Source of the DNA: a virus
Reading direction: 5' to 3' (one strand)
DNA: 64,000 nucleotides
Virus record (IMG/VR): IMGVR_UViG_3300012162_000002
Span: 3,096-67,095 of that record
Part shown: positions 32,729 to 62,300 of the stretch, one piece after another
How positions within the stretch are numbered: position 1 is the stretch's first letter
Layout of the letters: each line of letters starts with the position of its first letter
Notes under the pieces: model-generated
Told to the model about the DNA's origin: nothing
Databases searched by the model: none
Seen by the model: only the letters and a program-made list of their open reading frames with translations
Position numbers and translations under genes: made by a program

Positions 32729-33172
32729 ATGAAAAGAATCAAAAGTTTAACAAATCATGTCGTGTGTGAATTATCAAATAGAGAAATGAAAGACAGGAAT
32801 ATATCAAGATATGTATTAATCACGAGGGAAGAAATGGAATATCAAAGTAATATGAGAGAAATTGAATTTGAAGCTGATAGCATACAAGAGTTAATTGACT
32901 TTGTAAATAGTAAGGAGGAAGGGGCAGTCATGACAAAATCAGAGTATGTAAAATGTGAAAAACTTATGATTAATGCTATTTGTTTAGGAAAACAGGTTAA
33001 TGATGAATTTAAAAAGGCTGATGCATACCTTAAAGTTGCAGAACTACATAAATGGGAAATTGAACAAAGAAAAGCTGATCAACACTATGGTCAAGTTATT
33101 GGAGTGAATCAAGTGCTTGTTTCGTTAGGTTTTAAGCATGAAAAAATGAAAGAACTTAGTAGACTATTATAA
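32729..33172 (+). CDS. hypothetical protein
   Basis: ORF track, RBS. Confidence 0.6.
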   Translation: MKRIKSLTNHVVCELSNREMKDRNISRYVLITREEMEYQSNMREIEFEADSIQELIDFVNSKEEGAVMTKSEYVKCEKLMINAICLGKQVNDEFKKADAYLKVAELHKWEIEQRKADQHYGQVIGVNQVLVSLGFKHEKMKELSRLL

Positions 33173-33427
33173 AATGAATCTTTGAAGGAGGAAAAAGTAT
33201 GTTACTCAGAAAACGTATGGTAGACAGATTATGTACTATAACAAGAATTCCTGAAGTTGAAATTTTGGAATATTTAGATAATAATCCGATTGTTGAAGTA
33301 GACATAAAAGAGCTGTTAAGAGATGGTAAACCATTTGAAGATATATTAACAGATATAGCACATTGTATAATGGATTAACTAAGATATTAGTCTCCGGCGG
33401 TATTCAGGAGAAAGAGAGGAATATGAA

Positions 33428-33760
33428 ATGAGACTTAGAGAGAAAAATATAGCAGAAAAATTCAATATTTTAGATAAAGTTCAGAAGTTAGAATTTGACC
33501 TTTTGAACATTGAAGGTGTGACAGAGGTGGAGTTTGATCTTTGTGGATTTTACGACAATATGAATCAAGTGATATTCCTTACTAAATATGATATTACTGT
33601 AAATATAAAAGATTACTTCCAGAAGAGAGAACAATTAATAAACAAAGTTATTGATGTTTCAAAAGCCAATGGACTAGAACGGACAGAGGATAGAATTGAA
33701 GACTATGGAGAACATTTCTATTTTGTTATGAAACATGATAAAAATTGGTTAACTCAATAA
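33428..33760 (+). CDS. hypothetical protein
   Basis: ORF track, RBS. Confidence 0.65.
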   Translation: MRLREKNIAEKFNILDKVQKLEFDLLNIEGVTEVEFDLCGFYDNMNQVIFLTKYDITVNIKDYFQKREQLINKVIDVSKANGLERTEDRIEDYGEHFYFVMKHDKNWLTQ

Positions 33761-33769
33761 AAACTAAAT

Positions 33770-34117
33770 TTGAAAGGGAGAAAAGTCATGAAAAGAACAT
33801 TTAAAGCGGCAATATTGCTTATATTAGCATTATTAATCTTACTAACACCTATCGCATCACAAGCCAAAATACCCGCAACACGTACGTTTACAGGCACATA
33901 TTATGATTATATGTGTATTATTACTAAGTCTGGTAAAGAAATACTTTTACCGGATAGGCAGGCAGCAAGCAATAAATACATGAGATGGAGTAAGAATAAG
34001 GAATGTTATATTCCTATATTCAGAGATGGACAAAAGGTTAAAGTAACGCTTAAAGTCGGAATACATGGAAAATATAGAGTTTTGAAAGTGGTTAAGATTA
34101 AAAATAGAAAATATTGA
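33770..34117 (+). CDS. putative secreted protein
   Basis: Signal peptide MKRTFKAAILLILALLILLTPIASQA. Confidence 0.65.
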   Translation: MKGRKVMKRTFKAAILLILALLILLTPIASQAKIPATRTFTGTYYDYMCIITKSGKEILLPDRQAASNKYMRWSKNKECYIPIFRDGQKVKVTLKVGIHGKYRVLKVVKIKNRKY

Positions 34118-34159
34118 AATCTCTATAAAATGTGATATAATCAAAGAAAATGGGAGTGG

Positions 34160-34519
34160 ATGGACATGAATTTATATGAAATAAGAATGCGGCATTATGC
34201 CCCAAAAGACAGTAAAGAAGGAATCATCTGCTATTTATTAACAGAATCGAATGAAAAGGTCTATGAATGGATAAAGTCAGAGCCTAAAATTGAAGGATGT
34301 GAGTTATATAATTCATGGATGTATGATGATGATCCCAACGAAGAGGGATTCAAAGAGAGAATCATTAAGTGTAATGGTGATATGTATGACGATGAATCGG
34401 AAGTATATGACTTATATTATGGAGCAACCCAATATGGGTGGAGATTGATAAAAGAAAATATTTCAGAAGAAACAGTTTTGATAATTAAAGCGTGCGGAAT
34501 AAAGGTATTTACATGTTAG
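34160..34519 (+). CDS. hypothetical protein
   Basis: ORF track. Confidence 0.65.
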   Translation: MDMNLYEIRMRHYAPKDSKEGIICYLLTESNEKVYEWIKSEPKIEGCELYNSWMYDDDPNEEGFKERIIKCNGDMYDDESEVYDLYYGATQYGWRLIKENISEETVLIIKACGIKVFTC

Positions 34520-34564
34520 AAGTAAGGTAATTGAAAATTATTTATACATAGAATTGTGATTTGA

Positions 34565-34792
34565 ATGACAATAATAATGGAGGTAAACAAAATGAATATA
34601 GAAGAAGCATGGGAGAACATGACACAACTTGTAGGGGTAGGGATATATGATAGTTACAGGCAATCCATAGATCCCGATCAGTCCGTGGACGATAACGGGA
34701 CTGCTTGTTATAATGGATATATCATAACGGTAAATAATATAGACTATCATTATACAGCGGCAGAAATGGAAGCATTTGCGGAGACATGGTGA
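34565..34792 (+). CDS. hypothetical protein
   Basis: GGAGG RBS before MNIEEAW. Confidence 0.6.
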   Translation: MTIIMEVNKMNIEEAWENMTQLVGVGIYDSYRQSIDPDQSVDDNGTACYNGYIITVNNIDYHYTAAEMEAFAETW

Positions 34793-35096
34793 CAGATGAG
34801 GGATAGGACTAAGACAATGAATCAGTGAAATAATGTGGGAATTGAAAGCAGTATATCAGGATTTATGCACTAAAAAATAAGACTGCTTATAAACAGCCTT
34901 ATTTTTTAGGTTAGTACCTAAGCATATGCATATATCATTGTTTCAATCCACGGCGGTCAGAATTGGTAACCGCTCCAAACATAATACCATCCTACTATGT
35001 TTGACATTTTCATTATAATAGGTCAAGATAGTGCTGTCAAGTGGAATCTTATCAAATTTATTATGATAATTATGCTTTTATAAGGGGGAAAAAACG

Positions 35097-35609
35097 ATGT
35101 TAAAAAAATTACGCATCAACAATGAATGGGTATATCATTCGTCAAAATGGTGTAAAGGTATTAAGAATATAAGCGATATTTTGTATATTACCCATGATGC
35201 TATTAGAGATGACACATCTCAAATAACGGTAAACTACAATAAGGGAAATCCAATAATATACAGACGTTCAAATTGGGAAAAGACATGGGTGGAATGTAAC
35301 CGCTCTAGAATAGTAGAAGAAATATTAAATCGCTTCAAAAGGTGGGAATCCTTAATAATATCAAAAGAAGAATGCTATTTTTTTGAAAATAGCGTCGATT
35401 TGCTATGTGAATTATTTCCTGATGCAGAAATAGCGCACAAAGATGAATTTAATTTACATCTTGGCTGTGAAATAAAGGTAGAAAGAGATAGGATGTACAG
35501 AAATTGCTCACAAATAAAAATCATACCTATGGAGCATAACAAATATGGAAATTTGTATCCCGGTCATACAAATTTTCTATTTGCAAGAACAGAAATAAAT
35601 ATTACCTAA
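35097..35609 (+). CDS. hypothetical protein
   Basis: ORF track, RBS. Confidence 0.6.
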   Translation: MLKKLRINNEWVYHSSKWCKGIKNISDILYITHDAIRDDTSQITVNYNKGNPIIYRRSNWEKTWVECNRSRIVEEILNRFKRWESLIISKEECYFFENSVDLLCELFPDAEIAHKDEFNLHLGCEIKVERDRMYRNCSQIKIIPMEHNKYGNLYPGHTNFLFARTEINIT

Positions 35610-35785
35610 AGCGTAATTACCCCCTACGGAGTACCTGAGATGATGGATACACCGCCCATCCAAAATAATTACGCTTTTATTATGCTTAAAAACAATATTA
35701 TACATGTTTTTATGTGTTATTACTTCCATTATATAGTAATAAGTGGTATAATTTGACTTATTAAAATATTTGGAGGTATGAGGGT

Positions 35786-36943
35786 ATGGGAAGAAAAATT
35801 ATTTTAATGATTCTTTGTACAATGCTGGGATTTGTATTTGTAGCGTGTGGATATAATAGAGACAATGAGAGAAATACCACGGATATATCCGAAGCAAAAG
35901 AATCGGATTTTATTTTAGACATGATAAAAGGACTTGAGGCACGCTGGGAGGTTCCTGACAATAGCGAAGGTATAGATATTGACGTGGACAAATCAGAACA
36001 AAGAGTACAAGTAGAATTGGATAATATTGAAAAATACAAGTTGGCGAAATTTTCTGACAAAGACTTTCAAACACTTGCAATGGATTATCTGGATGCTGTT
36101 TTAATACAGAAAGAAGCAATATTGCATGCAAAGTCAGGTGACTACACGAAGTATGACGAGCTATGGGGAAAAGGATATAAAAAACGTAGCTTAATCATTT
36201 ATCAACTTTTTGAAAATTACAATTTAAAAGTTTCGGACAAATATAATGACAGCATTCAAGAATTAATTAGTGTTGGAGAGATACAGTTAAAAACTGAAGA
36301 AAATAAAAAAGAAATAGAAGAATGGCTTAAAACAATTAAATTCTCTAAAGGGGATAAGGATTATACTTATCAAGCAATTACTCAAAATCCAACAAATATT
36401 ACATTTTCATATATAAACTTAAATATTAATTTAATTGACAAAGACGGCATTGTGATAAATTCTACATATTCCTCTATTAATAATATTGATCCTAATTCAA
36501 AAATACGTTTTGAATTTTATAATGATAAAGATTTTGTGCAAACAGACGCAACAGCAGATTATCAAATAGCTGACAGTGAGAATTATATAACTGAAAAAGT
36601 TAGAGGTATTATAAATGATGTTGATTCGCCTACTATAATGGACACTTTAAGTGATGAAGAAAAGGAAAGATATGATATTGCAATAATGGGATATAATAAA
36701 ATATATGATAATCTTAAAAATCCAAGTAGTTTAACAATTTATGGAGTAAAATACAATGAAAATAAAAAAATGGTTATCTTTAAATATACGGCTTCAAACA
36801 GTTTTGGTGGTGAAGTAACAGAGTATGCAGCGTATTCTTCTTCAGGTATAATTGACACAGAATATGGAAGTTCATATTGGCAATCTAATAATGCCATTGA
36901 TATGGATTGGAATAAAATACTAGAATATAGTAACTCGAAGTAA
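35786..36943 (+). CDS. lipoprotein (moron-like), FxLYD-like central domain
   Basis: Signal II with FVAC lipobox; NPTNITFSYINLNINLIDKDG beta-sandwich. Confidence 0.7.
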   Translation: MGRKIILMILCTMLGFVFVACGYNRDNERNTTDISEAKESDFILDMIKGLEARWEVPDNSEGIDIDVDKSEQRVQVELDNIEKYKLAKFSDKDFQTLAMDYLDAVLIQKEAILHAKSGDYTKYDELWGKGYKKRSLIIYQLFENYNLKVSDKYNDSIQELISVGEIQLKTEENKKEIEEWLKTIKFSKGDKDYTYQAITQNPTNITFSYINLNINLIDKDGIVINSTYSSINNIDPNSKIRFEFYNDKDFVQTDATADYQIADSENYITEKVRGIINDVDSPTIMDTLSDEEKERYDIAIMGYNKIYDNLKNPSSLTIYGVKYNENKKMVIFKYTASNSFGGEVTEYAAYSSSGIIDTEYGSSYWQSNNAIDMDWNKILEYSNSK

Positions 36944-37127
36944 AGAAATCTAATATATTTTCGATAGTATTAAACCTGATACATCAGTTATAATGAACAA
37001 TATAAAATAATAATAAAAACATCAATCGAATATGGTTGATGTTTTGTTTTGGAAAAATAATATGAAAACTAGTTGACAACGTGATAACTATATGATATCA
37101 TGTATTTATCAACAGGAGGGAACAATT

Positions 37128-37307
37128 ATGGCAAGAAAAAACTTTGCAACCTCTATTGATGAAGAAATATCAAAGGAGTTTAAAATTACTTGTATAAAAA
37201 ATAATGAGCCAATGAACACAGTATTAGAAAGGTTCATGGATGCTTATTCTAAAGGAAAATTTAAATTAGAACTCCGATATGAAAATAATCAATACGAGGA
37301 AAAATAA
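37128..37307 (+). CDS. ribbon-helix-helix (CopG-like) regulator
   Basis: RKNFATSIDEEISKEFKITC; promoter TTGACA-17-TATCAT upstream. Confidence 0.7.
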   Translation: MARKNFATSIDEEISKEFKITCIKNNEPMNTVLERFMDAYSKGKFKLELRYENNQYEEK

Positions 37308-37648
37308 GAATGACGGTTGCCGACTACCAATCAAACAAACCGCCATTCACTAGACAATAGACCTAAGTCTAAAGCTATCTTAATTATAGCAAATCTTAAG
37401 ACTTTTGTCAAAAGTCAGTTTTCCCAATTGATAAAGGAAAATTGAATAAACTGGGACGTAGCCAGTATAAAAACGTAGCGTGAAGTGAAATAGTCCAACG
37501 GATGAAGCATGAATCATAATTATATTGTGGTGGTCTTTCCGTAACTTGCAAAAGTAGACACGTTTAATAGGTCTTTTAGATAAATAAAAATAAAAGGCTG
37601 ATACTGATAATATCAACCTTTTACATAACATTGACACCTATAGAAAGT

Positions 37649-40839: not shown

Positions 40840-41022
40840 TTACAATAAAAGTCTTAATTGAAAAGGAGGAATAAAACTATGAACTATCTTGATTTAAAAG
40901 AAAATTGGTATGCTTTATATTTATCAATAGTGAACTACATGACATCTGATGATGCTATAAGAGTGATGATTGGCACTAGAGAGTATAATTTCAATAACCG
41001 CTAATTTGGAGGTGTAAGTAAA

Positions 41023-41229: not shown

Positions 41230-41253
41230 ATTAAGAAAGGTTAAATAATAATC

Positions 41254-41580
41254 ATGGAAGAAAAAGTTGTATGGGAATATGACTATTATACGCTGCAACA
41301 AGCCCGCAAACTAATCTATCAGGAAATGCGTTATGATCGACTACAAAGGGAATATACAATTAAAAGAAAAGAAAAATTAAGACGTAAACGGAAAATTTAT
41401 TACATAAAACAGAGATTAATTGGATTGATGGTTTGTATGCTGTCAATCCTTTTGTTTTACATAGCAGACGGGACTATAATGTCAGTCTTGTTGTTTACAT
41501 GTGGCTTGTGGATTATAGGCACAAAACAGAAACTATTCATTAACCTATTTAATGATATCAAAGAATCTTTTGAAAGGTAA
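41254..41580 (+). CDS. membrane protein
   Basis: Basic segment followed by two hydrophobic helices. Confidence 0.65.
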   Translation: MEEKVVWEYDYYTLQQARKLIYQEMRYDRLQREYTIKRKEKLRRKRKIYYIKQRLIGLMVCMLSILLFYIADGTIMSVLLFTCGLWIIGTKQKLFINLFNDIKESFER

Positions 41581-41786: not shown

Positions 41787-42203
41787 ATGGGTAAGATAAT
41801 TTTTAAAAATAGTGAACACTTGAAATTCTACGAGAATTTTTTACAAAAGTGCGGAGGTAGAGATGTATACCACAAAGCGTTGATGTATTGTCTTGGGATC
41901 GATGAAAATACGAGAAAAAATATATATAGAATATATGATTTCAAAACAGAGTGTGTAAAACCGGAATGTTTACACGATGGATGGATTACCAGCGGAAGTG
42001 CAAAGATAATCCGCATAGCATTCAATCTTTACTGTAATGGTACTCCAAGTGTATATGAGTATGAAAATGACCAAGAAGAGGCTTTAAAAGAGTGTAAAAG
42101 GTATACTGTGGAGGACTTGTTCTGCTGCGGTTATGCACGGTATTTCTGGGAAGCGGTTAAAATCAGATATCCGGAATATTGTTGCAATAAAACGGAGGAT
42201 TGA
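41787..42203 (+). CDS. DUF6075-like protein
   Basis: IIFKNSEHLKFY...YHKALMYCLGI...WITSGSAKIIRIAFNLY pattern (recalled). Confidence 0.6.
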   Translation: MGKIIFKNSEHLKFYENFLQKCGGRDVYHKALMYCLGIDENTRKNIYRIYDFKTECVKPECLHDGWITSGSAKIIRIAFNLYCNGTPSVYEYENDQEEALKECKRYTVEDLFCCGYARYFWEAVKIRYPEYCCNKTED

Positions 42204-42206: not shown

Positions 42207-42449
42207 ATGGACGTACCAATGTGCAAATGTGAAAGAGATGGTTGTGAGTATAATTTGGATGGGTATTGCACTAACGGAGCAATGCTGTTGTTACTTGAAC
42301 TTGATGATATAGCCTATAGAGAAATTCCTTTTAGTGAAACATGCTCATATTATAGTTATACTCCCGATTTTATTGATGATGATGATGATGACATTGACGA
42401 ATATGTATTTGTAGATGATTATTGTGATTATCTTTGGGATGGTGAATGA
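42207..42449 (+). CDS. Cys/Asp-rich hypothetical protein
   Basis: ORF track. Confidence 0.55.
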   Translation: MDVPMCKCERDGCEYNLDGYCTNGAMLLLLELDDIAYREIPFSETCSYYSYTPDFIDDDDDDIDEYVFVDDYCDYLWDGE

Positions 42450-42531: not shown

Positions 42532-42837
42532 ATGAAATTTTATGAAGCATTTGAATATGTGAAGAATGAACTTGAAGGTAAAACTTTGACGTTGGGTGAA
42601 ATAGATAAAATTACTATGTCAACAGATCAATTCTATGATGGACTCTCCATTGATATTCTTTACAGATGTAAAGTAAGAAAAAATTTATATTCTTATAATG
42701 GTGAAGAGTATGACAATCAAGTCATAGCTATTGATTTTAGTTTTGTGGAAGATTTAGAAAGAATCAAATTACAGAATGATGAACTAGATGGATTTGAAGG
42801 TGTTATAGTTACCGTTAAAAAGGTTTATTTATTTTAA
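42532..42837 (+). CDS. hypothetical protein
   Basis: GGAGG RBS. Confidence 0.65.
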   Translation: MKFYEAFEYVKNELEGKTLTLGEIDKITMSTDQFYDGLSIDILYRCKVRKNLYSYNGEEYDNQVIAIDFSFVEDLERIKLQNDELDGFEGVIVTVKKVYLF

Positions 42838-42872
42838 TGTAAAAACAAAATATAAAAATGGAGGATTAAGTA

Positions 42873-43199
42873 ATGGGTTATTATACTGATTATACTTTGG
42901 AAACTCACAAATCTAAAATGAATATATCAGATATTTTAGGCAATTTATCTGAAAATGATTTTGGTGGATTAAATTATGCAATAGATGTTTATGGGGAATA
43001 TTATGAATCCGTCAAATGGTACGACCATGAAGATGATATGAAAAAATTATCATTAAAATTTCCAGATGTAATTTTTAAGTTACATGGAGAAGGGGAAAAT
43101 TCAGGAAATTTATGGGATAAATATTTTAAAAATGGAAAAATGCAAACTTGTTATGCAGTAATTACTTTTGATGATTATGATGAAAGTAAATTAGAATAA
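42873..43199 (+). CDS. hypothetical protein
   Basis: GGAGG RBS. Confidence 0.7.
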   Translation: MGYYTDYTLETHKSKMNISDILGNLSENDFGGLNYAIDVYGEYYESVKWYDHEDDMKKLSLKFPDVIFKLHGEGENSGNLWDKYFKNGKMQTCYAVITFDDYDESKLE

Positions 43200-43231
43200 A
43201 TAGAGTTGAAGATTGAAAGGGTGATAATAAA

Positions 43232-43510
43232 ATGAAGAAATGTGCAGATTTTATAACAGTAAAAGGAAAACATTTTCGAATTTGTTACCCATTAGGGTTA
43301 ATGGGTGTGAAAGGAAATGAAATTTATGAACTAGAAAAATATTGTCAATGTCGCTATTGTAAAACCAGAAGATCCTATAATAGAGAACCAGCTAATACTC
43401 TAATTGCATCAACAACGGATATTCTAAAATTAAATGATATTGCCGACTTCGTAAATGATTGGACTTGTGGGAATGAAAGGCAACTGGAAAGATTATATGT
43501 AAAATTTTGA
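43232..43510 (+). CDS. hypothetical protein
   Basis: ORF track. Confidence 0.6.
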   Translation: MKKCADFITVKGKHFRICYPLGLMGVKGNEIYELEKYCQCRYCKTRRSYNREPANTLIASTTDILKLNDIADFVNDWTCGNERQLERLYVKF

Positions 43511-43572
43511 CTTGTGGTAGAAAGAGGAAATATATAAACAATTAAATATGATATTGAAAGGGCTGAAATTAT

Positions 43573-43857
43573 ATGAGAATAACAGAAGAAATGGTATTCC
43601 GTTTTAATAATATGCTTTTATTAACAGAAGGATGCAGTTTTAAACTTCAACTTAATTATGGCGTAGGGAGTAATATGCAGTGTGAAATAGTTCCAAGGTC
43701 TGGAAAATTTTTAGACAGTTGGGTGCTAAATGCATCCAAGGAATTTTATTTTACTCTAGAAAAATTTTTCAAATCAGAAGGAATTGAATTAAGCTACAAT
43801 AATGACGGTAGTATTTTCTGGAGTAAATCAGGATTTACGGATAAAATCAATATTTGA
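43573..43857 (+). CDS. hypothetical protein
   Basis: ORF track. Confidence 0.6.
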   Translation: MRITEEMVFRFNNMLLLTEGCSFKLQLNYGVGSNMQCEIVPRSGKFLDSWVLNASKEFYFTLEKFFKSEGIELSYNNDGSIFWSKSGFTDKINI

Positions 43858-44116: not shown

Positions 44117-44159
44117 ACGATAAAAATAGTATTTGAAAAGATAAAAGGAGGATAAAAGT

Positions 44160-44771
44160 ATGAAGATCAATAAAGAACAAGAACAGGTAATTATTACATT
44201 ATATAATGAAATTATGAAAGAAAGAGGGCAGAATAAACAAATCGCAGTCCAAGACATAGATTTTAAAAAATCAATTCAGGTTGGTGATTATACATGGAGT
44301 GCATTTTCTGGTGATAAAGATGGTAATACGGGCATTTTGTTAGATAAAAAACATACAATTAAGGGCGTTCAATTTGGCGAAGATAATAATTATTCAACTA
44401 GCAACGTTAGAAATGTAGCTAATGATTGCGAGCCATCAAAACAAGCATTAAAAATTTTCGGTAAAGATGCATTTATTCCACTTGAAATTGATTTGCTTAG
44501 TCATGATGGATTAAGGGATTATGGAGTCTGTAGAGGTGATCTATTTGGAATTTTGAATTATGATATGTATCGGAATAATCGTGAAAATATTGATTACAGT
44601 GCAATGCTGCTTGCTACACCAGAATCAACACCTTCCGGCGATGGCCCATCTTATGTTCGGTGTGTTTGCTCCGGCGGCGGCGTGGGCTGCGGCGGTGCTG
44701 GCTGGGATGGCGGGGGTGTCCGTCCGTTTTATATCCTTAAATCTGATATCTTCGTATCTTTGGTAGAGTAG
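44160..44771 (+). CDS. DUF6273/C-lectin-like protein, probable DGR target
   Basis: C-terminal ATPESTPS...VRCV...GVRPFYIL with a GC-rich, NNC-codon-rich variable-region-like end. Confidence 0.6.
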   Translation: MKINKEQEQVIITLYNEIMKERGQNKQIAVQDIDFKKSIQVGDYTWSAFSGDKDGNTGILLDKKHTIKGVQFGEDNNYSTSNVRNVANDCEPSKQALKIFGKDAFIPLEIDLLSHDGLRDYGVCRGDLFGILNYDMYRNNRENIDYSAMLLATPESTPSGDGPSYVRCVCSGGGVGCGGAGWDGGGVRPFYILKSDIFVSLVE

Positions 44772-44846
44772 TGGGAAGCCGATAGCGTAGTCTAGGGTGT
44801 AAACCCTCTAGTAAGCTACCGATAAAATATAATTTTGAAAGGATGA

Positions 44847-45224: not shown

Positions 45225-45254
45225 ATAAATTCAGCTTTTGAAAGGAAAGGAGAA

Positions 45255-45608
45255 ATGAAAGTTATGAATCTTTTAGATAAGGAAGAAGCTTTGTATAAAC
45301 AAGATATGGAGAATAGAGAGGAATTAATAAAAAAATCATTGTTAATTGGTACTGATTCTCTTAGTAGGGTGGAATTAGATCAAATTGTACAAAGCGGAGT
45401 TATGGGTATTTCAAAGTTATATAAAAGTCAGATAATAAAATACAATGGAAATATGTTAACATCTGAAATTTATAAAGCCGCTGATTTTCATTTTAATGAT
45501 GCTGGGTTTCAGTTTAAATGGAGAAATCATCGAGGAATAATTCAACTAGAATGTCTTACATGGAAAGAAGTATTAAGAAGAATTAAAAGTATAAATAAAA
45601 CTCATTAA
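45255..45608 (+). CDS. hypothetical protein
   Basis: AAGGAG RBS. Confidence 0.6.
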   Translation: MKVMNLLDKEEALYKQDMENREELIKKSLLIGTDSLSRVELDQIVQSGVMGISKLYKSQIIKYNGNMLTSEIYKAADFHFNDAGFQFKWRNHRGIIQLECLTWKEVLRRIKSINKTH

Positions 45609-45767
45609 AAACACTGATTGAAAAGGAGATTGAAAAACATGTTTAGGGGATATGTAAATGGAACTTGTTATTATAGCTATAAAGCTTTTAAGATTGCCAA
45701 GGCAGAATATGAAGAAAAACTAAAAACGTTTCAATGTAAATAGTTCAGCTTTTGAAAGGAGAAATAT

Positions 45768-45977: not shown

Positions 45978-46244
45978 AAGAGATAAATTCGACATTTGAT
46001 ATGAAACAAAAATTAAGAGTTGATTGGCGAAAACTTTTAATTGTAAATTAGATAGAGACTAAGGAGGGAATTATGTTAATAGATGTAAAATTGTTATCTG
46101 AGTTTAATGTGAATGGAAAAACATATTGCATCGTCAGAATAAAAGGTGGTGCATGCACTTTGGAAAAACATGAATATCTTGAGTTGCTGGAATTATATAC
46201 TCATGATACAATAGAAAAAATAGCTTAAAAGAAAGGAATTTACT

Positions 46245-46672: not shown

Positions 46673-47650
46673 ATGTGTTATAAAACAGAGAAGCATCAGC
46701 AGTTACGGATAAACTTAGAAGGACTAACAAAGGATTACCCTTTATTCATTAAGGGATTTTTCGCAGAACAGAAATCAGCCAGGAGTAGTTATAATTATTT
46801 TGGGTGTATCAATAATATGTTAACATGGTTAATTGAAAATAATATCGTTGATAAAAAATCTATATCTGAAATAACCGCAGAAGATTTGAACGGCGTTCTC
46901 CCATCTCATGCTACATTGTATTTTTCGCAACTTCAGACAAATGGAAATGAGTTAGATACAATTGGTACTAAGATAAATTATTGCAGTTCATTTTGGACGT
47001 ATCTTAAATGCAATAAATATGTGATTGAAAATATTATATCTTTAATCAACAAAAGCAGATTTAAATCCGAAAAAACAACACATGATGTAAAAATCCCAAG
47101 TGAAGAAGAACTTTCTGAATTTCTGATCAATATACAGTCAGGAAATAGCAAGGGATATGATTGCATCCGGAACTTAACTATAGTAAAATTACTATTGGGC
47201 AGTGGTATACGGTCAGAAGAGTTGATAGGGTTGGATGTGCAAGATCTGTATTTGAATAATGATGCCTACATTATGATTATGGGTAAAGGACGAACAGAGC
47301 AGCAAGAGAAAGTAATGATAACTCCAGAAGCTAAAAAGCAGTTGAAAAAATATTTACTTGTTAGGAGTGAATTTGCAGAAGAAAAAGAGATTGATACTAA
47401 CGCTTTATTTTTATCAAATCGTAGACAGAGGATATCTAAAGGGGCATTAGACAATATTTTCTTGATTAATAGTAATAAAAAAATCACACCTCATATGCTG
47501 CGACATTATGTCGGAACTATGATCTATAGAAATACAAGAGATATTGTCTTAGTACAAAATCAACTAAGACACTCTAGCTTAGAAACGGCTGCCAAGTATT
47601 ATGTACAGGCAGACGAAAAAAAATTAAGAGAAGTGTTGAATACATTGTAA
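46673..47650 (+). CDS. tyrosine recombinase/integrase
   Basis: GIRSEE, GKG, HMLRH, LRHS and AKYY catalytic motifs. Confidence 0.9.
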   Translation: MCYKTEKHQQLRINLEGLTKDYPLFIKGFFAEQKSARSSYNYFGCINNMLTWLIENNIVDKKSISEITAEDLNGVLPSHATLYFSQLQTNGNELDTIGTKINYCSSFWTYLKCNKYVIENIISLINKSRFKSEKTTHDVKIPSEEELSEFLINIQSGNSKGYDCIRNLTIVKLLLGSGIRSEELIGLDVQDLYLNNDAYIMIMGKGRTEQQEKVMITPEAKKQLKKYLLVRSEFAEEKEIDTNALFLSNRRQRISKGALDNIFLINSNKKITPHMLRHYVGTMIYRNTRDIVLVQNQLRHSSLETAAKYYVQADEKKLREVLNTL

Positions 47651-47692
47651 AATAAATAGAATACAGTTTTGAAGAGATAGGAGGAAATTTAG

Positions 47693-48016
47693 ATGGTAAT
47701 AAAAGCGTTGGAATTTAAAAAGGAAGATGGAACTAATATAATTATATATGTTTCTTTATATAACGATTTCTATGGTGCAATAGAATGGAGAATAGACGAT
47801 ATTCAATATAATCCTGTTGGAAAGATAAAATGGCTATGGTTAAATAAAATATTTGATGAATCATCTGAATACCGACGTCTTGAAATTGAAGAACGAGAGC
47901 AATTTAAAATGAATAAATATATAGAATTCGTTGGCAAAGAAAGAGTGATCGAAGCTTTCTTGAGTGCTTGGGAAAAGTTAAAACCTAGTTTACCAGATGT
48001 TTATATTAACTTATAA
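47693..48016 (+). CDS. hypothetical protein
   Basis: GGAGG RBS. Confidence 0.6.
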   Translation: MVIKALEFKKEDGTNIIIYVSLYNDFYGAIEWRIDDIQYNPVGKIKWLWLNKIFDESSEYRRLEIEEREQFKMNKYIEFVGKERVIEAFLSAWEKLKPSLPDVYINL

Positions 48017-48068
48017 ATGATAAAATCAAAGGCAGATTTGATGTAAATTTTTGAAGGAGGAAAATTAA

Positions 48069-48521: not shown

Positions 48522-48548
48522 GATAAATTTCGCATTTGAATTCATTTT

Positions 48549-51583: not shown

Positions 51584-51805
51584 ATGTGGAAATATTATAT
51601 TGTCTTATTTAGAGATGACTGTTACGGAGATTTAGTTGAGGGAGCAGAATATAATGATGAGCTTCCTGTATGCGTTGATTATAATGTTGCAAAAGAGTTT
51701 GATAGCACTGGCGAGTTATTGGTGTGGGTGAAAAAGAATACTTCGTTGGAAGATGGAGAATATGGTATTAGTGGCATTTTCTATGAGAATATAATAAAAG
51801 AATAA
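51584..51805 (+). CDS. hypothetical protein
   Basis: GGAGG RBS. Confidence 0.6.
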   Translation: MWKYYIVLFRDDCYGDLVEGAEYNDELPVCVDYNVAKEFDSTGELLVWVKKNTSLEDGEYGISGIFYENIIKE

Positions 51806-51820
51806 ATTGAAAGGGGAAAT

Positions 51821-52033
51821 ATGGAGAATTTAAAAATAATTAAAGAATATAAATTTATAAGAGGAGGTTCCTCTATTGTTTTAGAGATTGGAAATAGGGT
51901 TAGGGTGAAAACCAATAGGGGTATAATTGAAGGAGCGTTGAGTTCAGTAAATGAATCATGCGATGCTTTTGTTGTTGATAATGGTTATACAATGAATAGA
52001 ATTACTTGTGATGAAGTTATTGATATGATTTAA
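51821..52033 (+). CDS. hypothetical protein
   Basis: ORF track. Confidence 0.6.
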   Translation: MENLKIIKEYKFIRGGSSIVLEIGNRVRVKTNRGIIEGALSSVNESCDAFVVDNGYTMNRITCDEVIDMI

Positions 52034-52287
52034 AATGTTGTTTTGAATTATAAAAGGAGGTTACATTATGAAAGCATCTGAATTGATTTTGGAGCTTGTT
52101 CAAATAATTGCAAAAGAAGGAGATTTATGTGTTGTAGCATTTGATTTGGACAGGTGTATTGAACCAGTAACAGAAGTTGAATTAGCAACTAGCTCTTATA
52201 ATGGAAAAGTTATATTAATTGATGCATAGCTGCCGACTATAATAGTTGGTGGCTTTTTAATTTTAAAAGTAGAATGAGAGGTGGTTT

Positions 52288-53250: not shown

Positions 53251-53279
53251 TTGACAATTAAGTGTGTATATGATATATT
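53251..53279 (+). promoter_or_regulatory. sigma-A promoter
   Basis: TTGACA-17-TATATT upstream of the MazF-like gene. Confidence 0.7.
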
Positions 53280-53327: not shown

Positions 53328-53732
53328 ATGTCAGTGATAGCAGAGAATAAAAAAGAAAGACTGGAGAAAAACGAAAAACACGTCAGCGTACATGCTTGGG
53401 AGATATGGTTAATAGATGTTCCTGCCTATGCTGACACATCACAATTTAGAGGAATGCATTATTATTTAATGACTTGCAATGATAAGGGTGGTAAATATTC
53501 TCCCATGTTAGGAGCTATGCCATTTACCTCAAAAGAAGCGAGTCTTCCAACTCACATATCCATCATTCATGATTTTGATAAGATTGGATTGAGAAAACCG
53601 TCAATATTATCTGTTGAATCTAGACATAAGGTGGACAGACGATGGTTAAAAAAGAAAGTTGGATATATCTCAAATGAATATGTAAGAGAGAAAATAAGAG
53701 CAGCTTTTATTTATGATTCAGGGCTGTTTTAA
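53328..53732 (+). CDS. PemK/MazF-fold protein (divergent active site)
   Basis: Aligns by eye to MazF (WEIWLIDV..SQ..NDKGGKYSP..PFTS..LPTHI..SIL..E..KVDRRWL); the RP motif is replaced by HY. Confidence 0.7.
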   Translation: MSVIAENKKERLEKNEKHVSVHAWEIWLIDVPAYADTSQFRGMHYYLMTCNDKGGKYSPMLGAMPFTSKEASLPTHISIIHDFDKIGLRKPSILSVESRHKVDRRWLKKKVGYISNEYVREKIRAAFIYDSGLF

Positions 53733-53805: not shown

Positions 53806-54765
53806 ATGGATGCATTAAAAATTATAGATGATTATATTTCTACTATTAATAAGCATAAGGTTATTTACAAGAATATATTAATGAGGACTTATGAATGTAA
53901 CAATGATTTTATTGAATTAGATGTTACAGGGATGATTTCCTTACTTATTGATGATTTAAAAATCAATAAAGTATCCGTTGCAAAGAATTTCTATCATACA
54001 TTAAGTATGTTTTTTAGATATCTCAACCAGCAAGGGATTGTTGAAGAAAATTTATTTGATTTTATTTCTTATGAACAAATAAAAAAATTAACTTATAAAA
54101 ACTTATGCATTTTAACAGAAAACGATATAAACAAATTGATAGATAATTTATATAATCAGAATAGCAACAATGCCCCTTACGAAGAAGTTGTAATAAGATT
54201 GTGTTATGAATGTATTTCGGATTCAATATCAGAAATATTAAAGATCAAAAGAAGTAATGTGTTATTACAAGATAAGTCTATCAACGGTATTGATATATCA
54301 GATAAACTTATAGATGCAATATTAAAAATGTACAGTATGGATTCTTGGCTGTATAAAGAGTCAAGAAGAGACTTATATTCCCCTTTAGAAAACATTGACA
54401 ACAAACGGTTGATTAGTTATGCGATTAGAGGAAAGGCTCCGGCAGAAACTGTTGAAAAAAGAGAGGATACAGCGCACCTATTTATTCAGAGAAACATTTT
54501 TAGCGGTTTAGAATTTAATGGATATAGCATAGATCCACAAATTCTTTACTGCTGCGGACTCACAAATAAAATTATAAAAGATTTCGGAATGGATTATTTT
54601 AATACTATGTTTTCAAAGACTCGACTGGATGGAAAAAAATATTATCTGAAAGATGAAAACTATAGTTTTAAACGTTTGAAAGAAAAATATAAAATCAAAT
54701 GCGAGTTGGATACACTAAAAGAAAAAATGATGCCATACTCCATCGCTTTAAAGAATAAGAAATAG
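53806..54765 (+). CDS. integrase-fold protein lacking catalytic motifs, MrpR(YopR)-like repressor, putative
   Basis: SAM-like N-terminal domain (LSMFFRYLNQQGIVEENLF), ILTENDINKLI...VVIRLCYECI...EILKIK box without Arg; no HxxR. Confidence 0.5.
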   Translation: MDALKIIDDYISTINKHKVIYKNILMRTYECNNDFIELDVTGMISLLIDDLKINKVSVAKNFYHTLSMFFRYLNQQGIVEENLFDFISYEQIKKLTYKNLCILTENDINKLIDNLYNQNSNNAPYEEVVIRLCYECISDSISEILKIKRSNVLLQDKSINGIDISDKLIDAILKMYSMDSWLYKESRRDLYSPLENIDNKRLISYAIRGKAPAETVEKREDTAHLFIQRNIFSGLEFNGYSIDPQILYCCGLTNKIIKDFGMDYFNTMFSKTRLDGKKYYLKDENYSFKRLKEKYKIKCELDTLKEKMMPYSIALKNKK

Positions 54766-55961: not shown

Positions 55962-56018
55962 TTTGATAAACTGAACTTTAAGAAAATAAATTTACGCTTT
56001 TGAAAGGAGCAAAACAAA

Positions 56019-56402: not shown

Positions 56403-56677
56403 CTCCAAACTTTAAGAAAATAGAATCACTCTTTTATTGGAATCCGGCGTACATGAAATCTGCTACCGTTCACGACTAAAGTTCCCGTTTGAAATAACCT
56501 CTCTTAGGAGAACGGGTAAAAACATGAGTGAAGTCGAATTGAGCAAGTCCGGATTTAAAAAAGCAGAATCCAATTATGATATTTTTATTTGAGCGAAAGC
56601 AGAGGACGGAATAGGCAGCCGTCACCCAATGTTAGGAGATGTAGGAATGTCACCCTACCTATTTCGTTCAAATTTTT

Positions 56678-56750
56678 AGCCCAGTAGTTTAATTGGTAGA
56701 ACAACAGGTTTTGAACCTGTAGGTTGCACGTTCAAGCCGTGCCTGGGTTG
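56678..56750 (+). tRNA. tRNA-Gln(UUG)
   Basis: AGCCCAG/CTGGGTT acceptor, GTTT/GAAC D stem, ACAGG-TTTTGAA-CCTGT anticodon arm, GCACG-TTCAAGC-CGTGC T arm, G discriminator; no CCA. Confidence 0.9.
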
Positions 56751-56775
56751 TTGCTAAATTATTAGCAAATTATTA

Positions 56776-57062
56776 GGCTATAAATAAAACTTCCTTCTAT
56801 ACCCTATAGGGATCGACTGGTAATCGAATTATAGTTTTATTACTTACCTAATGTTTTAGTAAAATGTAGGCTATTAAAATTCTTCCTTCTATAAAAATTC
56901 AATATAAATGGTATGATTAGAATTTTATATCACCTACAGGAAATGATAATGGCTATATAAAATCTTCCTTCTTTTTATTATCTCGAAAGAGATGAAGACT
57001 ACATACAAGTTTTAGATTTTATATTTACCATGTAACAACAGGCTATGGAGGCGGTTCCTTCT
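56776..57062 (+). repeat. array of four GGCTAT-N8/9-TTCCTTCT repeats (period 82-93 bp)
   Basis: Copies at 56776, 56869, 56951, 57041. Confidence 0.85.
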
Positions 57063-59229: not shown

Positions 59230-59241
59230 TTTGAAACATTA

Positions 59242-59412
59242 GGCTATATAAATTCATCCTTCTTATAAATGATGCCAACTGGGATCGTAGGTTCAAATCC
59301 TACCAACTACATGACTGTAGTTGTAGCCAAGAGGTAAGGCTCCAGTAATAATTTGAATTTGTAATTCCCTAATATAATAGAAAAATTAGTGGCTATATTA
59401 TTTCTTCCTTCT
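59242..59412 (+). repeat. two further GGCTAT...TCCTTCT repeats bracketing the permuted tRNA-like RNA
   Basis: Copies at 59242-59263 and 59391-59412. Confidence 0.8.
59278..59346 (+). ncRNA. circularly permuted tRNA-like RNA (YrlA Y-RNA-like topology)
   Basis: Order T arm, acceptor stem closed by a 6-nt loop, D arm; all four stems perfectly paired. Confidence 0.8.
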
Positions 59413-59460
59413 AACTCAAAGCGAAAACAGAAATGATAATTACCACAATTAAAAACATCT

Positions 59461-59522
59461 GAGCCTAAATGGAAATATCTAAAAATATTTTAGAGTTGCC
59501 GGTTCAAATCCGGCTAGGCTCC
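59461..59522 (+). ncRNA. D-arm-less tRNA-like element
   Basis: GAGCCTA/TAGGCTC acceptor, GCCGG-TTCAAAT-CCGGC T arm, TCTAA/TTAGA arm; no D stem. Confidence 0.6.
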
Positions 59523-59809
59523 TAAACTTTCTATTGACCGGCTAATAGGACAAGTGAGACTGGATGAATGAAACCAGCATAAAAAATAATTGGAGCAAAA
59601 CCAATCCAAAAAAACCTTACAAATAGTATTTAATTACAAATGTAAAAGAAGACTTTGTATATCATAGTGTGGTGATAAAGACCTGAATTAGATTTCAAAT
59701 ACTATGGAATGTATTATGAGTATTGTCATACAAAATAATGTGAAATAAAAATTTCACTTGTGCTATTAGCAGCTATTAGAAAATATTTTTTAGAAAGGAA
59801 ATAATTAAA

Positions 59810-60424
59810 GTGGGTAATTACTTAATTACAGATGGTGATAGATTTATATATCGCAATCATTCTGGCAAATATGTTCCTGTTAAAAGCGAATCTATGGCTG
59901 ATTTATACAGTAAGAAACAAGCGGAAGCAATACATGCTAATTGCATTCCGAAATCCTTACGAAAGCTATTCCGTGTTGAACGAAGTAGTGTAATACAAGT
60001 TGATAAGAGCATTAAACCGCCAGATGCGGTTCAAATAAGTAATAATACGGAAAAGGTAATGTTATCAACGAATATACAGCTATGGGTAGATAAGATCAAA
60101 GATTTAAATGGGTTGGCTGCGGAGGTATCTGAAAGAAAAGAGACTTTATTAAACCAACTAAGAGATGTTGATAAAAAGATATCGGATATTAATCATTACA
60201 TAGAATTTACTAAATTAAATGCTAGTCAAGGATTTAAAGCTTATAAACTGATAAAAGATAATCTTTCTCATAGAAGAGTTGTTAAGAATGAACTCACTGT
60301 GTTGAATATCATTCTTGATTATAAACTTGACGAGGCTGTTGAAGAGGAAATAATGAAAAGAATCGAAGGTCTGGACAAAAGAAATTATAAACCAAGGATA
60401 CTGGAAGAGTTGTTTGATATATAA
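59810..60424 (+). CDS. coiled-coil hypothetical protein
   Basis: ORF track; GTG start after AAAGGA. Confidence 0.65.
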   Translation: MGNYLITDGDRFIYRNHSGKYVPVKSESMADLYSKKQAEAIHANCIPKSLRKLFRVERSSVIQVDKSIKPPDAVQISNNTEKVMLSTNIQLWVDKIKDLNGLAAEVSERKETLLNQLRDVDKKISDINHYIEFTKLNASQGFKAYKLIKDNLSHRRVVKNELTVLNIILDYKLDEAVEEEIMKRIEGLDKRNYKPRILEELFDI

Positions 60425-60449
60425 AACAGTTATTTGAAAAGGTGAAAAA

Positions 60450-60668
60450 ATGAATAAAAGAAAGTTAAAGAAAAATAGGAAATTAAGATGTACTTATTGT
60501 AACGATGTAGGCATGTCACAGGACGGGTGTGTTGGAAGAATTGAGAGAGTTTTAGTAGGAAGAATTCCTGATTGTGTAATATTAGAAAGGGAGATAAATT
60601 GTTGTCCGTATTGTGGAAGAGACTTACTTAAATTCAGAAGACGAAAAAGGAGAGGAAAGAAAATATGA
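60450..60668 (+). CDS. small Cys-rich basic protein
   Basis: CTYC...CPYC. Confidence 0.55.
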   Translation: MNKRKLKKNRKLRCTYCNDVGMSQDGCVGRIERVLVGRIPDCVILEREINCCPYCGRDLLKFRRRKRRGKKI

Positions 60669-60988
60669 GTAATGTTAAAGAAAGGATTGACGAAGTAATA
60701 TCTTATTCTGCTCTTATTGATTTCATCGGAGTAGGTAATGTTAAAAAACTGCAAGACGGTTTTACGGATCTACTGTTGAATAGATTACAGAATGATTTAG
60801 ATGAATATAGTAGATTTTTGTTCTATCCACCAGATCACGAAGATGTTATTGAGGAAGCATTTGATAAAGTAAAGAAAAAATTGGTGAAGTCATACAGTGA
60901 TGCTATGTTGGATGTTGCTCAAAAATCCGTAGAGAAGTGGAAAGAAACCGCATTGTCTGATATGGAAAAGCTTAAAGATAAGGAATAG
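60665..60988 (+). CDS. hypothetical protein
   Basis: ORF track, coupled start. Confidence 0.65.
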   Translation: MSNVKERIDEVISYSALIDFIGVGNVKKLQDGFTDLLLNRLQNDLDEYSRFLFYPPDHEDVIEEAFDKVKKKLVKSYSDAMLDVAQKSVEKWKETALSDMEKLKDKE

Positions 60989-61027
60989 GAATAGAAGACT
61001 CATTTGATGAGAATGGAGTGAAATTAA

Positions 61028-61136
61028 CCTGTGTTGGTACAAGGCGTTAGCTCGACGGAGCCAAACGAGTGCAAGTCTCGTAAATCGGGGGCAGCCGACA
61101 GGGAGTAAGAATAGGTTCGAATCCTATCGCCAACAA
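61028..61136 (+). ncRNA. tRNA-like RNA with extra arms
   Basis: TGTTGGT/GCCAACA closing stem, ATAGG-TTCGAAT-CCTAT T arm and three more hairpins. Confidence 0.6.
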
Positions 61137-61171
61137 TCAAATACATTTTTGATAGAAAGGATAATAGTTGA

Positions 61172-61711
61172 ATGAAAAAAAGTGATTTAAAGACAGGTAT
61201 GAGAGTTAAGTTAGGGAACGGTGATTTATGTTTGGTTTTCAAAGATTGTGAAACACAACACTACGGACATCAAGAATTATTGTTTGCTAATTTTAATTAT
61301 GGTTTTTTAATTGGAGATAATTACAATGAGGATTTAAAACATGTAAGTGATGATAAGGGTTATAGTATTGTAGAAGTATTTACAACAGAAACTGGTTTAT
61401 GTGATTCTAATATCCTTAATAAAAATAGGCTTAACAGTATATGGAAAAGAAAAATTGAATACAGTTATGATGGATTTATTAATGGTGATTTCGCGGTATG
61501 TTGTAGAACCGAACAAGATTCATATTTATTTCTGGCTTTTTTAACCGGGAAAGGAATTACATGGATAAAAGGAGAAAAATTATTTACAGATCCCCCAGAT
61601 GAATTTGAAGAAGATACATGTTTCAGCTATAAACTCTATAATAAAACTCTTACCTATGGAAATGTGAAAGATTTTAAGTCTGTAGTTTATTTTGAAAAAA
61701 GTATGTTATGA
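61172..61711 (+). CDS. hypothetical phage protein
   Basis: MKKSDLKTGMRVKLGNG, a common phage N-terminal motif. Confidence 0.65.
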   Translation: MKKSDLKTGMRVKLGNGDLCLVFKDCETQHYGHQELLFANFNYGFLIGDNYNEDLKHVSDDKGYSIVEVFTTETGLCDSNILNKNRLNSIWKRKIEYSYDGFINGDFAVCCRTEQDSYLFLAFLTGKGITWIKGEKLFTDPPDEFEEDTCFSYKLYNKTLTYGNVKDFKSVVYFEKSML

Positions 61712-61758
61712 AAATAAATACTCATTCAACGCAGTGAAGGGAGGTATATAAAATAACC

Positions 61759-62079
61759 ATGAATGACTTTGAAAAATTATATAAACAAATTGAAGATAAT
61801 AAGCTTGCTAATATTCACGATGAGCGTGAAATAAATATTATTCTTCATGCCTTAAAAAAGCAGATACCAATGGAAGCGCAGAAAATTACTAAATGGGAGG
61901 ATTATTATATCTGTCCTGCTTGTAATTATGAGTTTCCAGATATCGGCGGTATGTGTGAAATTTACGGTGTTTCAGAGACTCCCAGTTTTTGTGAATGTGG
62001 ACAGCGATTAAAATATAGTAATAAGTTTGTTTATAATGAATTCGGTGAAGCTATTGAAAGGATAATAAATGTAAATTGA
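61759..62079 (+). CDS. Zn-ribbon protein
   Basis: ALKKQIP...CPAC...FCECGQRL. Confidence 0.7.
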   Translation: MNDFEKLYKQIEDNKLANIHDEREINIILHALKKQIPMEAQKITKWEDYYICPACNYEFPDIGGMCEIYGVSETPSFCECGQRLKYSNKFVYNEFGEAIERIINVN

Positions 62080-62300
62080 TAATTGCGATAAGTACAAGAC
62101 AGTGTTTATGAAATTAAAATGCCAATTTGATATTGAAAAGTAGGAGGATAATAATATGCTTTGTCCTAAATGCGGAAGAAAAATGAAACATATTTTAAGT
62201 TTCGACAACACCAGAAACTATCAATCTTACGTTTGTAAATGTTTATTCAAGACAAAAAAGAAAAGAATACATTTTGAGGATATTGTAAAAGAAAAATAGG

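Follow-up and report, generated by a model that had tools for sequence, protein, structure and literature searches.

A spaced two-block motif at early-gene junctions of an SPβ-like phage: a possible translation-region linker and recombination substrate

The DNA analyzed here, hereafter the window, is a 64-kb stretch out of a 69.5-kb virus record (IMG/VR record IMGVR_UViG_3300012162_000002); the identical sequence also lies within a 138-kb metagenomic contig. The sequencing runs that contain it bear the label 'fungus metagenome', none of those listed being an RNA run, and its G+C content is about 31%. The genome has an SPβ-type layout, with a minus-strand left arm of larger genes and a plus-strand right arm of many small genes that starts at about 29.8 kb. 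It encodes a 913-amino-acid (aa) YonO-type single-subunit RNA polymerase, an enzyme that transcribes the late genes in SPβ; the window version shares 43-51% identity with its counterparts in SPβ-like Bacillus phages and in Clostridium phage D-1873. We describe here a short motif, TAAAW-N6-WTTGAW, which recurs at the gene junctions of the right arm, in an array that also holds a gene for a Xer-like tyrosine recombinase.

A preliminary description made from the sequence alone had listed 12 strict and six near copies, presented the motif as an interrupted palindrome and proposed an integron-like system shuffling single-gene cassettes. All 12 strict copies were recovered, and additional plus-strand matches were found at 42188, 47841 and 51795. 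The six near copies are real as well, and more were found at 43201, 45740, 48026 and 55987 (the last with a spacer of k=7). The right-arm copies are given below, SD standing for the Shine-Dalgarno sequence.

33170-33186 (+): strict copy; its TAA terminates 32729-33172, with the SD directly next
33758-33774 (+): strict copy; its TAA terminates 33428-33760, with the SD directly next; kept in contig L020 at 8992
34549-34565 (+): near copy, TAGAA...TTTGAA, upstream of 34592
40846-40862 (+): strict copy, 6 nucleotides (nt) past the upstream stop, SD immediately after
41558-41574 (+): near copy, TCAAA...TTTGAA, in the final codons of 41254-41580; identical in contig L003
42188-42204 (+): strict copy, SD within N6 and start codon 3 nt on
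43201-43217 (+): near copy, TAGAG...ATTGAA, 1 nt past the upstream stop
43542-43558 (+): near copy, TTAAA...ATTGAA
43842-43858 (+): near copy, TAAAATCAATATTTGAG; its TGA terminates the upstream gene
44121-44137 (+): strict copy upstream of 44160-44771, with 47-nt similarity to the 44823 junction
44823-44839 (+): strict copy downstream of 44160-44771
45226-45242 (+): strict copy, 1 nt past the upstream stop
45606-45622 (+): strict copy; its TAA terminates the upstream gene
45740-45756 (+): near copy, ATAGT...TTTGAA, 17 nt identical with the 45226 copy
45984-46000 (+): strict copy, 6 nt past the upstream stop, SD not adjacent
47657-47673 (+): near copy, 7 nt past the stop of the recombinase gene
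47841-47857 (+): strict match inside gene 47693-48016, probably due to chance
48026-48042 (+): near copy, TCAAA...TTTGAT
48524-48540 (+): strict copy, 3 nt past the upstream stop, next start 42 nt on
51795-51811 (+): strict copy, upstream stop within N6
52031-52047 (+): strict copy; its TAA terminates 51821-52033
55987-56003 (+): near copy with a 7-nt spacer, TAAAT...GCTTTTGAA, then the SD
60422-60438 (+): strict copy; its TAA terminates 59810-60424
61137-61153 (+): near copy, ATCAAA-N6-TTTGAT, with palindromic arms
62115-62131 (+): strict copy

Over the whole window TAAAW-N6-WTTGAW occurs 19 times, against 4.94 expected (standard deviation 2.1; maximum of 10 among 100 shuffles). The right arm has fifteen strict copies on its plus strand, and the others are at 9384 (+) and at 4804, 16871 and 55611 (-); the strand bias is 15:1. 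A scan of block spacing on the right-arm coding strand found 15 copies at k=6 and 0-6 at any other k from 0 to 20, and the other three combinations of strand and arm gave 1-2 copies. Within the 50 nt upstream of the 65 right-arm start codons, 11 strict copies were observed and k=6 was the sole peak. The corresponding null values are 0.14 for a mononucleotide shuffle, 0.20 for a dinucleotide shuffle and 0.12 for a column permutation that keeps the positional composition of stops and SDs, with a maximum of 2 in each. The composition of a stop followed by a ribosome-binding site (RBS), which the preliminary description had named as a possible trivial cause, is therefore insufficient to explain the motif. 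Among the approximately 40 left-arm genes, which have SDs, none has TTGAA before the SD, and the motif is absent there.

Gene junctions hold 13/15 of the strict right-arm copies, and approximately 24 junction copies are obtained once degenerate ones are counted. Their placement agrees with the preliminary description: most copies lie between a stop and the next RBS, 0-7 nt past the stop, and in five of them (33170, 33758, 45606, 52031 and 60422) the TAA is the stop itself. In most copies TTGAW abuts the SD. The fixed 6-nt spacing around a variable core was likewise borne out, k=6 being the only enriched value, as were the position of gene 44160-44771 between copies 44121 and 44823 and that of an intact tyrosine recombinase gene within the array, followed by a copy. 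The palindrome, by contrast, was not: the motif is directional, with a left block that is mostly TAAAW and is TCAAW in just four copies, and positions W5 and W12 show no covariation. The right block was found to be longer than first described, (G)CTTTTGAA, in most cases leading directly into AGGAGG; CTTTT is observed 12 times against 2.1 expected, and GCTTT 8 times against 1.4. Information is confined to TAAAW and WTTGAW, a conserved stretch of 17 nt with a total of approximately 14 bits and flanks of at most 0.4 bit, and the most informative positions are the TT and the G of TTGA. Iteration of a position weight matrix drifted to A-rich sequence and was used just to nominate near copies.

About half of the right-arm junctions lack the motif, and about half of those in the dense stretch between 40.8 and 48.6 kb carry it. 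We found no strong promoter or terminator in this stretch, which suggests that the copies there are transcribed within a polycistronic RNA. The junction RNA is unstructured, folding no better than shuffles (z-scores around 0 or positive in seven of eight cases), and comparison of the junctions with Rfam gave no family match. Genes downstream of the copies show no paralogy among themselves. Some whole linkers are paralogous over 41-47 nt, showing that junctions get duplicated along with insertions. Other, unrelated linker families are present in the same arm.

We compared the array with relatives and natural variants. The variant V is a near-identical phage (contigs L011, L017 and L020/21), with 99-100% identity to the window in the common parts; its events were checked base by base against the window. 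L003 is a relative with 75-93% identity to the window and a recombinase that is 75% identical. X1, X2 and X4 designate sequencing runs, and contigs of three other samples were compared with the array; joints with sides of 20-26 nt (36674>52621, 40583>45197 and 41117>47734) were set aside as unreliable. Relative to V, L003 and the X2 and X4 contigs, the differences consist of the insertion, deletion or replacement of one to three genes. The search for breakpoints at the motif that the preliminary description had suggested gave a largely positive result, with both crossovers in register between copies and joints at the edges of copies.

Three cases are of the first kind. V is devoid of 45247-45743 (two genes), and the joint falls within the 17 nt common to copies 45226 and 45740, in register. 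In L020, V has a two-gene insert of 506 nt between two near-identical copies of the entire 33170 junction. A contig of X2 skips from 51814 to 52052, in register between copies 51795 and 52031, the N6 of which are unlike. To these may be added the loss, in V and X2, of gene 42207-42449 by a crossover via a 15-nt imperfect repeat (GATTGATA / GATTAATA), which overlaps copy 42188 and the start codon and thus involves the right block, not the core.

Other joints lie at copy edges. In the comparison with L003, homology starts at most 1 nt from the 5' edge of copy 40846, the genes upstream being unrelated; another breakpoint lies within 1 nt of the 5' edge of copy 45984; and copy 42188 sits in a 53-bp island of homology with unrelated genes on either side. 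The 45984 copy itself is identical over 17-18 nt in L003, where neighboring non-coding sequence has heavily diverged. In V, 59 nt take the place of three genes (42831-43840), a replacement whose right end coincides with copy 43842, and V, X2 and X4 regain homology to the window from 43841. The 43842 junction (16 nt, including N6) is also found in L003 at 2988, between two unrelated genes. Its left partner in the window differs from that in V and L003, and its right partner in the window and V differs from that in L003, which gives this allele the appearance of a crossover point. Immediately 5' of copy 45984, between 45975 and 45983, V (L011:2506-3071) and X2 carry an insert of 566-570 nt; in V this is a single 153-aa gene with a terminator-like hairpin at its end, which resembles a moron. 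The contigs from other samples show the joints 42202>42479, 42830>43841 and 45970>45983 (with 570 nt inserted), and in X4 a 51810>52031 joint, with its left end in copy 51795, replaces the intervening gene by 202 nt and ends exactly at 52031. A second X1 contig loses homology at 44825, within copy 44823, and an X4 contig diverges at 45611, within copy 45606. Identity of V to the window alternates at the joints: 99.6, 94.4, 99.2, 89.2 and 100%.

A further set of joints falls elsewhere. Four more breakpoints with L003 are at plain gene boundaries, and events with one of their ends at such a boundary are seen at 41249, 41764, 42514, 42830 and 45975. Two joints in contigs from other samples, 49560>51497 and 46529>46656, touch no copy. 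In V, the absence of 31676-32429 results from a crossover between two similar SD/start linkers, the motif being absent from both. Approximately 14 events were scored, and in 10/14 at least one end touches a copy. Since the motif occupies about half of the junctions in the dense stretch, contact at one end is about what chance would give, and only the in-register crossovers count as specific evidence. The data support an array shuffled in cassettes with involvement of the motif. The part of the preliminary description in which cassettes (here of one to three genes) are gained and lost at the copies is thus retained, whereas its integron-like or Xer-type site-specific mechanism is not.

The X2 joint 49560>51497 omits most of a ParB-like gene and the DUF6551 gene next to it, with no motif at the junction. 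The DUF6075 gene at 41787-42203 (Pfam 2.8e-56) is absent from L003. A segment within it, 42002-42183, assembles as a separate contig at 2-4x higher depth in all four runs, suggesting that it is common to other, more abundant elements in those samples.

The motif is lineage-specific. L003 keeps it, with five copies within 5 kb that are all on the plus strand, and no copy is present in D-1873, L004, L006/7 or L009. Megablast of the 40-52 kb region against a phage collection gave no match, and a search of the viral contig collection for loci related by their recombinase returned no relative. The exact 40846 junction pattern had no match in the same collection; the sole match to the exact 45984 pattern, in L010, shares no other homology with the window and was rejected as a chance hit. 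Exact look-ups of the window recombinase (P0001) and of the 52068-52229 product returned no record. L004, from a distant lineage with a recombinase 49% identical to that of the window, has a pre-SD word of its own, TTGATTTTATTGG, and in the pair L004/L005 a homology of 99.4% stops at the 3' edge of this word. The positions concerned are the following.

L004:4290-4310 and L004:4845-4867: pre-SD word TTGAWNNNTTGATTTTATTGGAGG of the distant lineage
L005:3160-3176 and L005:3874-3896: the same pre-SD word

We propose, with a probability of about one half, that the motif is a lineage-specific translation-region linker doubling as a short-homology recombination substrate. The early operons of this SPβ-like phage are long, and a standardized intercistronic linker, [stop] TAAAW-N6-(G)CTTTTGAW-[SD]-N7-12-ATG, would connect some two dozen of their small, mutually unrelated genes. 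It would travel with the translation-initiation region of the downstream gene, which it most likely serves: the motif may provide an open A/U-rich leader abutting an extended SD, and a host or phage factor may read it. An RNA-level signal, already listed among the alternatives of the preliminary description, is the likeliest primary function. With more than 20 similar copies in direct orientation, short-homology recombination may take place either within a genome or between co-infecting relatives, and crossovers between copies would delete, duplicate, insert or swap the intervening genes. Recombination among direct copies would thus make the array behave like a set of cassettes. The joints themselves were probably made by general short-homology recombination and not by a dedicated site-specific enzyme.

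Several points weigh against this proposal. The role in expression, which we infer from where and in which direction the copies lie, from their restriction to one arm and from the absence of structure, is its weakest link, and for translation proper the argument is one of position. Adjacency to the SD, unlike that to the upstream stop, is not universal, since copies 45984 and 48524 sit 42-73 nt from the next one. That about half of the right-arm junctions do without the motif means that it is not required for expression. Pairing with the 3' end of 16S rRNA leaves the conservation of TTGA unexplained beyond GAA. On the recombination side, the contact of copies with 10/14 events is, as noted above, near chance, the identities involved (17-26 nt) are short for RecA-type recombination, and no phage annealing protein was identified in the window.

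An alternative, which we hold to be unlikely, is that the motif has no function: each linker-mediated insertion duplicates a junction, so that paralogous linkers multiply, and what is conserved reflects the needs of a stop (TAA[A]) and a strong SD (GAAAGGAGG), plus recent descent or gene conversion. The 6-nt spacing would then be inherited and not constrained. Duplication of a junction is seen directly, V having two 33170 junctions, and 17 nt are common to copies 45226 and 45740. The resemblance of whole linkers over 41-47 nt and the existence of N6 sub-families (GAATCTTT(T)GAA at 33170 and 41558; TTCAGCTTTTGAA at 45226 and 45740) point the same way, as do the unrelated linker families in the arm, the different words of different lineages and the many junctions that manage without the motif. 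The conservation pattern argues against this alternative. The TT and G of TTGA are the most informative positions and are needed neither by a stop nor by SD pairing, and left-arm SDs lack TTGA. Moreover, the 45984 copy has stayed identical in L003 amid diverged non-coding sequence. That both blocks are kept while N6 is randomized points to selection on the blocks.

We consider it quite unlikely that the motif is a protein-binding DNA site oriented with transcription, either stoperator-like, with a prophage repressor halting read-through transcription within the early operons, or for one of three ParB/KorB-like proteins. The preliminary description had put forward a MrpR-like protein as the reader of such operators, and the corresponding gene is listed here.

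53806-54765 (+): gene for a MrpR/SroF/YopR-fold protein, candidate master repressor; AlphaFold2 model with a predicted local distance difference test (pLDDT) score of 88.6; not linked to the motif

A Foldseek search with this AlphaFold2 model had SroF, MrpR and YopR as its top six PDB matches; the product had nothing in Pfam, PDB sequence or BLASTP searches and was placed by the fold search alone. From the SPβ promoters named in PMC10516654 we derived the SPBRE element as a sequence of approximately 21 nt, CAAATACAAAWAATATGTATA, which is always promoter-adjacent and whose SPβ copies are 0-3 of 21 positions off consensus; in the paper it is a 15-bp MEME motif (PMC10516654). Bound as a monomer, SroF reads out 24 of the 26 bp, the central six among them (bioRxiv 10.1101/2025.11.27.690993). 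SPBRE resembles the present motif in belonging to the same phage family, being directional and often standing immediately 5' of an RBS. The window, moreover, encodes ParB_N/DUF6551 proteins as well as the predicted MrpR/SroF-fold repressor, and the two conserved blocks are about one helical turn apart. SPBRE, however, is found at about ten promoters and is near-invariant, whereas the motif is degenerate, present in approximately 24 copies and off the strong promoters. None of six strong early promoters (29046, 29737, 34114, 37073, 53251 and 53741) has a copy, most copies being intra-operon. A free six-base center and a content of approximately 14 bits, compared with operators of 21-26 bp that are near-invariant, read throughout and promoter-linked, indicate that the motif is not a MrpR-type operator, and this suggestion is accordingly disfavored. 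A random match to a site of such low information would also be expected in the host about every 20 kb on each strand.

A closer parallel within the same alternative is with the stoperators of L5-type, Cluster A phages: more than 20 asymmetric sites in short intergenic spaces, all oriented with transcription, in a temperate phage (PMC9283540). Our motif shares the asymmetry, the single orientation and the intergenic location. Yet stoperators are high-information 13-mers, present in both arms and identical to the operator of the early promoter (PMC9283540), whereas here the sites are of low information, confined to one arm and missing at promoters; the strong early promoters are precisely where a stoperator system would reuse its site.

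The cassette mechanism of the preliminary description leads to a further alternative, which we regard as improbable: copies would be minimal core sites (5-nt arms and a 6-nt overlap) of a Xer-like recombinase acting in integron-like cassette capture and excision. The enzyme in question is encoded within the array.

46673-47650 (+): gene for a Xer-like tyrosine recombinase, 325 aa; Pfam Phage_integrase 2.5e-24

In an alignment with XerH and XerA, all catalytic residues (Arg, HxxR, His and Tyr) are in place. The enzyme appears active, and a copy lies 7 nt after its gene. The arms are partly inverted (TNAAW / WTTNA) around the 6-nt spacer. Tyrosine recombinases need matching sequence in the overlap region, and in-register differences are flanked by the same or nearly the same N6 (45226/45740; the 33170 pair). 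As in integrons, recurring sites separate co-oriented genes, those of the 40.8-48.6 kb stretch lacking strong promoters, and a tyrosine recombinase is nearby; the 6-nt spacer is also that of Xer cores. Variation on the scale of cassettes touches the sites, but many breakpoints lie outside them: numerous events have one end or none at a copy, the 42188 crossover took place in the right block and start codon, the 31676-32429 deletion used linkers that lack the motif and the X2 skip joined unlike N6. Known Xer/dif cores have inverted arms of about 9-13 bp around an overlap of 6-8 bp, compared with asymmetric arms of 4-5 nt here (against about 11 in dif), and there are dozens of sites instead of a single dif. 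No attC sites, which are imperfect inverted repeats of 57-141 nt folding as hairpins, were found, and the unstructured junctions indicate that there is no attC-like fold.

Nor does the enzyme itself argue for an integron. Its best solved relatives are XerH (5.6e-15) and XerA, while IntI4, from the integrase type defined by an integron-specific extra domain, is marginal (2e-4) with no stretch passing alone; the enzyme is XerH/XerA-like and not IntI-like. Homologues at about 50% identity are common on contigs of 70-140 kb, in arrays without the motif. In SPβ, the corresponding operon also encodes a tyrosine integrase, YopP; a BLASTP comparison of either recombinase-fold protein of the window against SPβ YopR or YopP was not significant. 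In view of the defining features that it lacks, the motif belongs to none of the integron, Xer/dif, SPBRE and stoperator classes. If copies were nonetheless core sites, SPβ-like phages would possess a site-specific single-gene cassette system in an early operon, in which N6 would be the overlap region deciding which cassettes exchange.

Least probable of all is a promoter for a phage-specific factor or polymerase before each SD, or a cleavage site for an endoribonuclease such as a MazF-fold protein: the fixed position just 5' of SDs on one strand of one arm, the promoter ahead of each small gene in T4-type hyperplastic regions (PMC2839356) and a PemK/MazF-fold gene at 53328-53732 speak for it, while no match to sigma-A geometry exists up- or downstream of the blocks and the late arm, the one served by the YonO-type polymerase in SPβ, is motif-free. 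Other candidates were rejected. A sigma-A promoter, with TTGAAA as -35 or TAAAAT as -10, has no consistent partner hexamer. An RNA hairpin between the blocks meets an A-G mismatch in TAAAW copies, lacks W5/W12 covariation and folds no better than shuffles. Extended 16S pairing covers GAA before AGGAGG and leaves the TT and the SD-distant copies unexplained, and stops in three frames are excluded since TAA and TGA cover just two.

Among known systems, the linker proposed here appears closest in behavior to the promoter-early stem-loops (PeSLs) of T4-type phages, and closest in anatomy to the start-associated sequences of Cluster K phages. PeSLs combine a sigma-70 promoter and a terminator hairpin (PMC2839356, PMC4122927). 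In both cases a short direct repeat lies between small non-essential genes of a hyperplastic early region (PMC2839356, PMC4122927), and recombination between copies explains insertions, deletions and replacements among close relatives; in the window this applies to the 45226 x 45740 crossover, the duplicated 33170 junction, copy 42188 and the edges of 40846, 43842, 45984 and 52031. Unlike PeSLs, the copies have neither a promoter nor a terminator stem-loop and would be unstructured pre-SD linkers inside operons. In addition, the mini-circles of PeSLs have been physically shown, whereas the joints here are known from assembled contigs alone.

Start-associated sequences (SAS/ESAS) are highly conserved 13-bp elements that contain the SD and prefer junctions of more than 50 bp (PMC3203893). 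They occur in 11-19 copies and are suspected of a role in translation, no role in recombination having been described (PMC3203893). Like our motif, they are asymmetric, in one orientation, in the non-structural right arm, a few nt from the starts of unrelated genes, and sometimes hold the upstream stop. In contrast, the present motif consists of two short blocks with a free 6-nt spacer, sits 5' of the SD in mostly very short junctions and has about 24 copies. It differs from the Cluster K consensus GGGATAGGAGCCC, which includes the SD, and both sequence and host phylum are unrelated; the likeness is one of analogy only.

These observations bear on a long-standing question, namely the origin of phage mosaicism, for which homologous exchange at short conserved boundaries competes as an explanation with illegitimate joining at random followed by selection. 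Clear boundary sequences are rarely found in phages (PMC3029335). Here, a large SPβ-like lineage has a recognizable boundary word at about half of its early-gene junctions, co-occurring natural variants catch crossovers within that word, and a second lineage shows the same behavior with a different word. The idea developed for PeSLs may thereby be extended beyond T4-type phages, to a translation-region linker instead of a promoter-terminator unit, and repeats described as 'start-associated' gain a second role that can be tested. The system is tractable, as cassette turnover could be measured between defined copies. For annotation, such motifs may serve to mark module borders in arrays of small uncharacterized genes.

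Other elements of the window deserve mention. The PemK/MazF-fold gene at 53328-53732 (Pfam 4.2e-8) lies directly upstream of the MrpR/SroF-fold gene, and each of the two has a near-consensus promoter (at 53251 and 53741, respectively); the L004 array also has a PemK gene. A 23-nt repeat, GGCTATATAAAATCTTCCTTCTT, is present in four copies that are 83-100% identical (56869-56891, 56951-56973, 59242-59264 and 59391-59413). They flank a 703-aa gene, and each adjoins tRNA-like T-arm pieces, GGTTCAAATCC. A MrpR-type operator was considered for this repeat and set aside; the copies may be promoters or small-RNA processing signals.

Rfam and ARAGORN identify a skipping-rope RNA directly 5' of a tRNA-Gln(ttg), and, beside the YonO-like gene, a minus-strand tRNA that overlaps the end of a DUF3800-I RNA.

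56595-56665 (+): skipping-rope RNA
56677-56751 (+): tRNA-Gln(ttg)
18939-19013 (-) and 19004-19111 (-): overlapping tRNA and DUF3800-I RNA

Finally, at 28501-28503 V carries a 733-nt insert (L020:3209-3941) of two small genes, one of which has a weak ParE-toxin match; the insert lies in the lysis-lysogeny switch region and resembles a toxin-antitoxin-like pair. At 29020-29075, a promoter-like TTGATA-17-TATCAT is overlapped by a direct repeat, TAGAAAAACCTAT, which occurs twice over the -35 and spacer and is a candidate switch-region operator unrelated to the junction motif.

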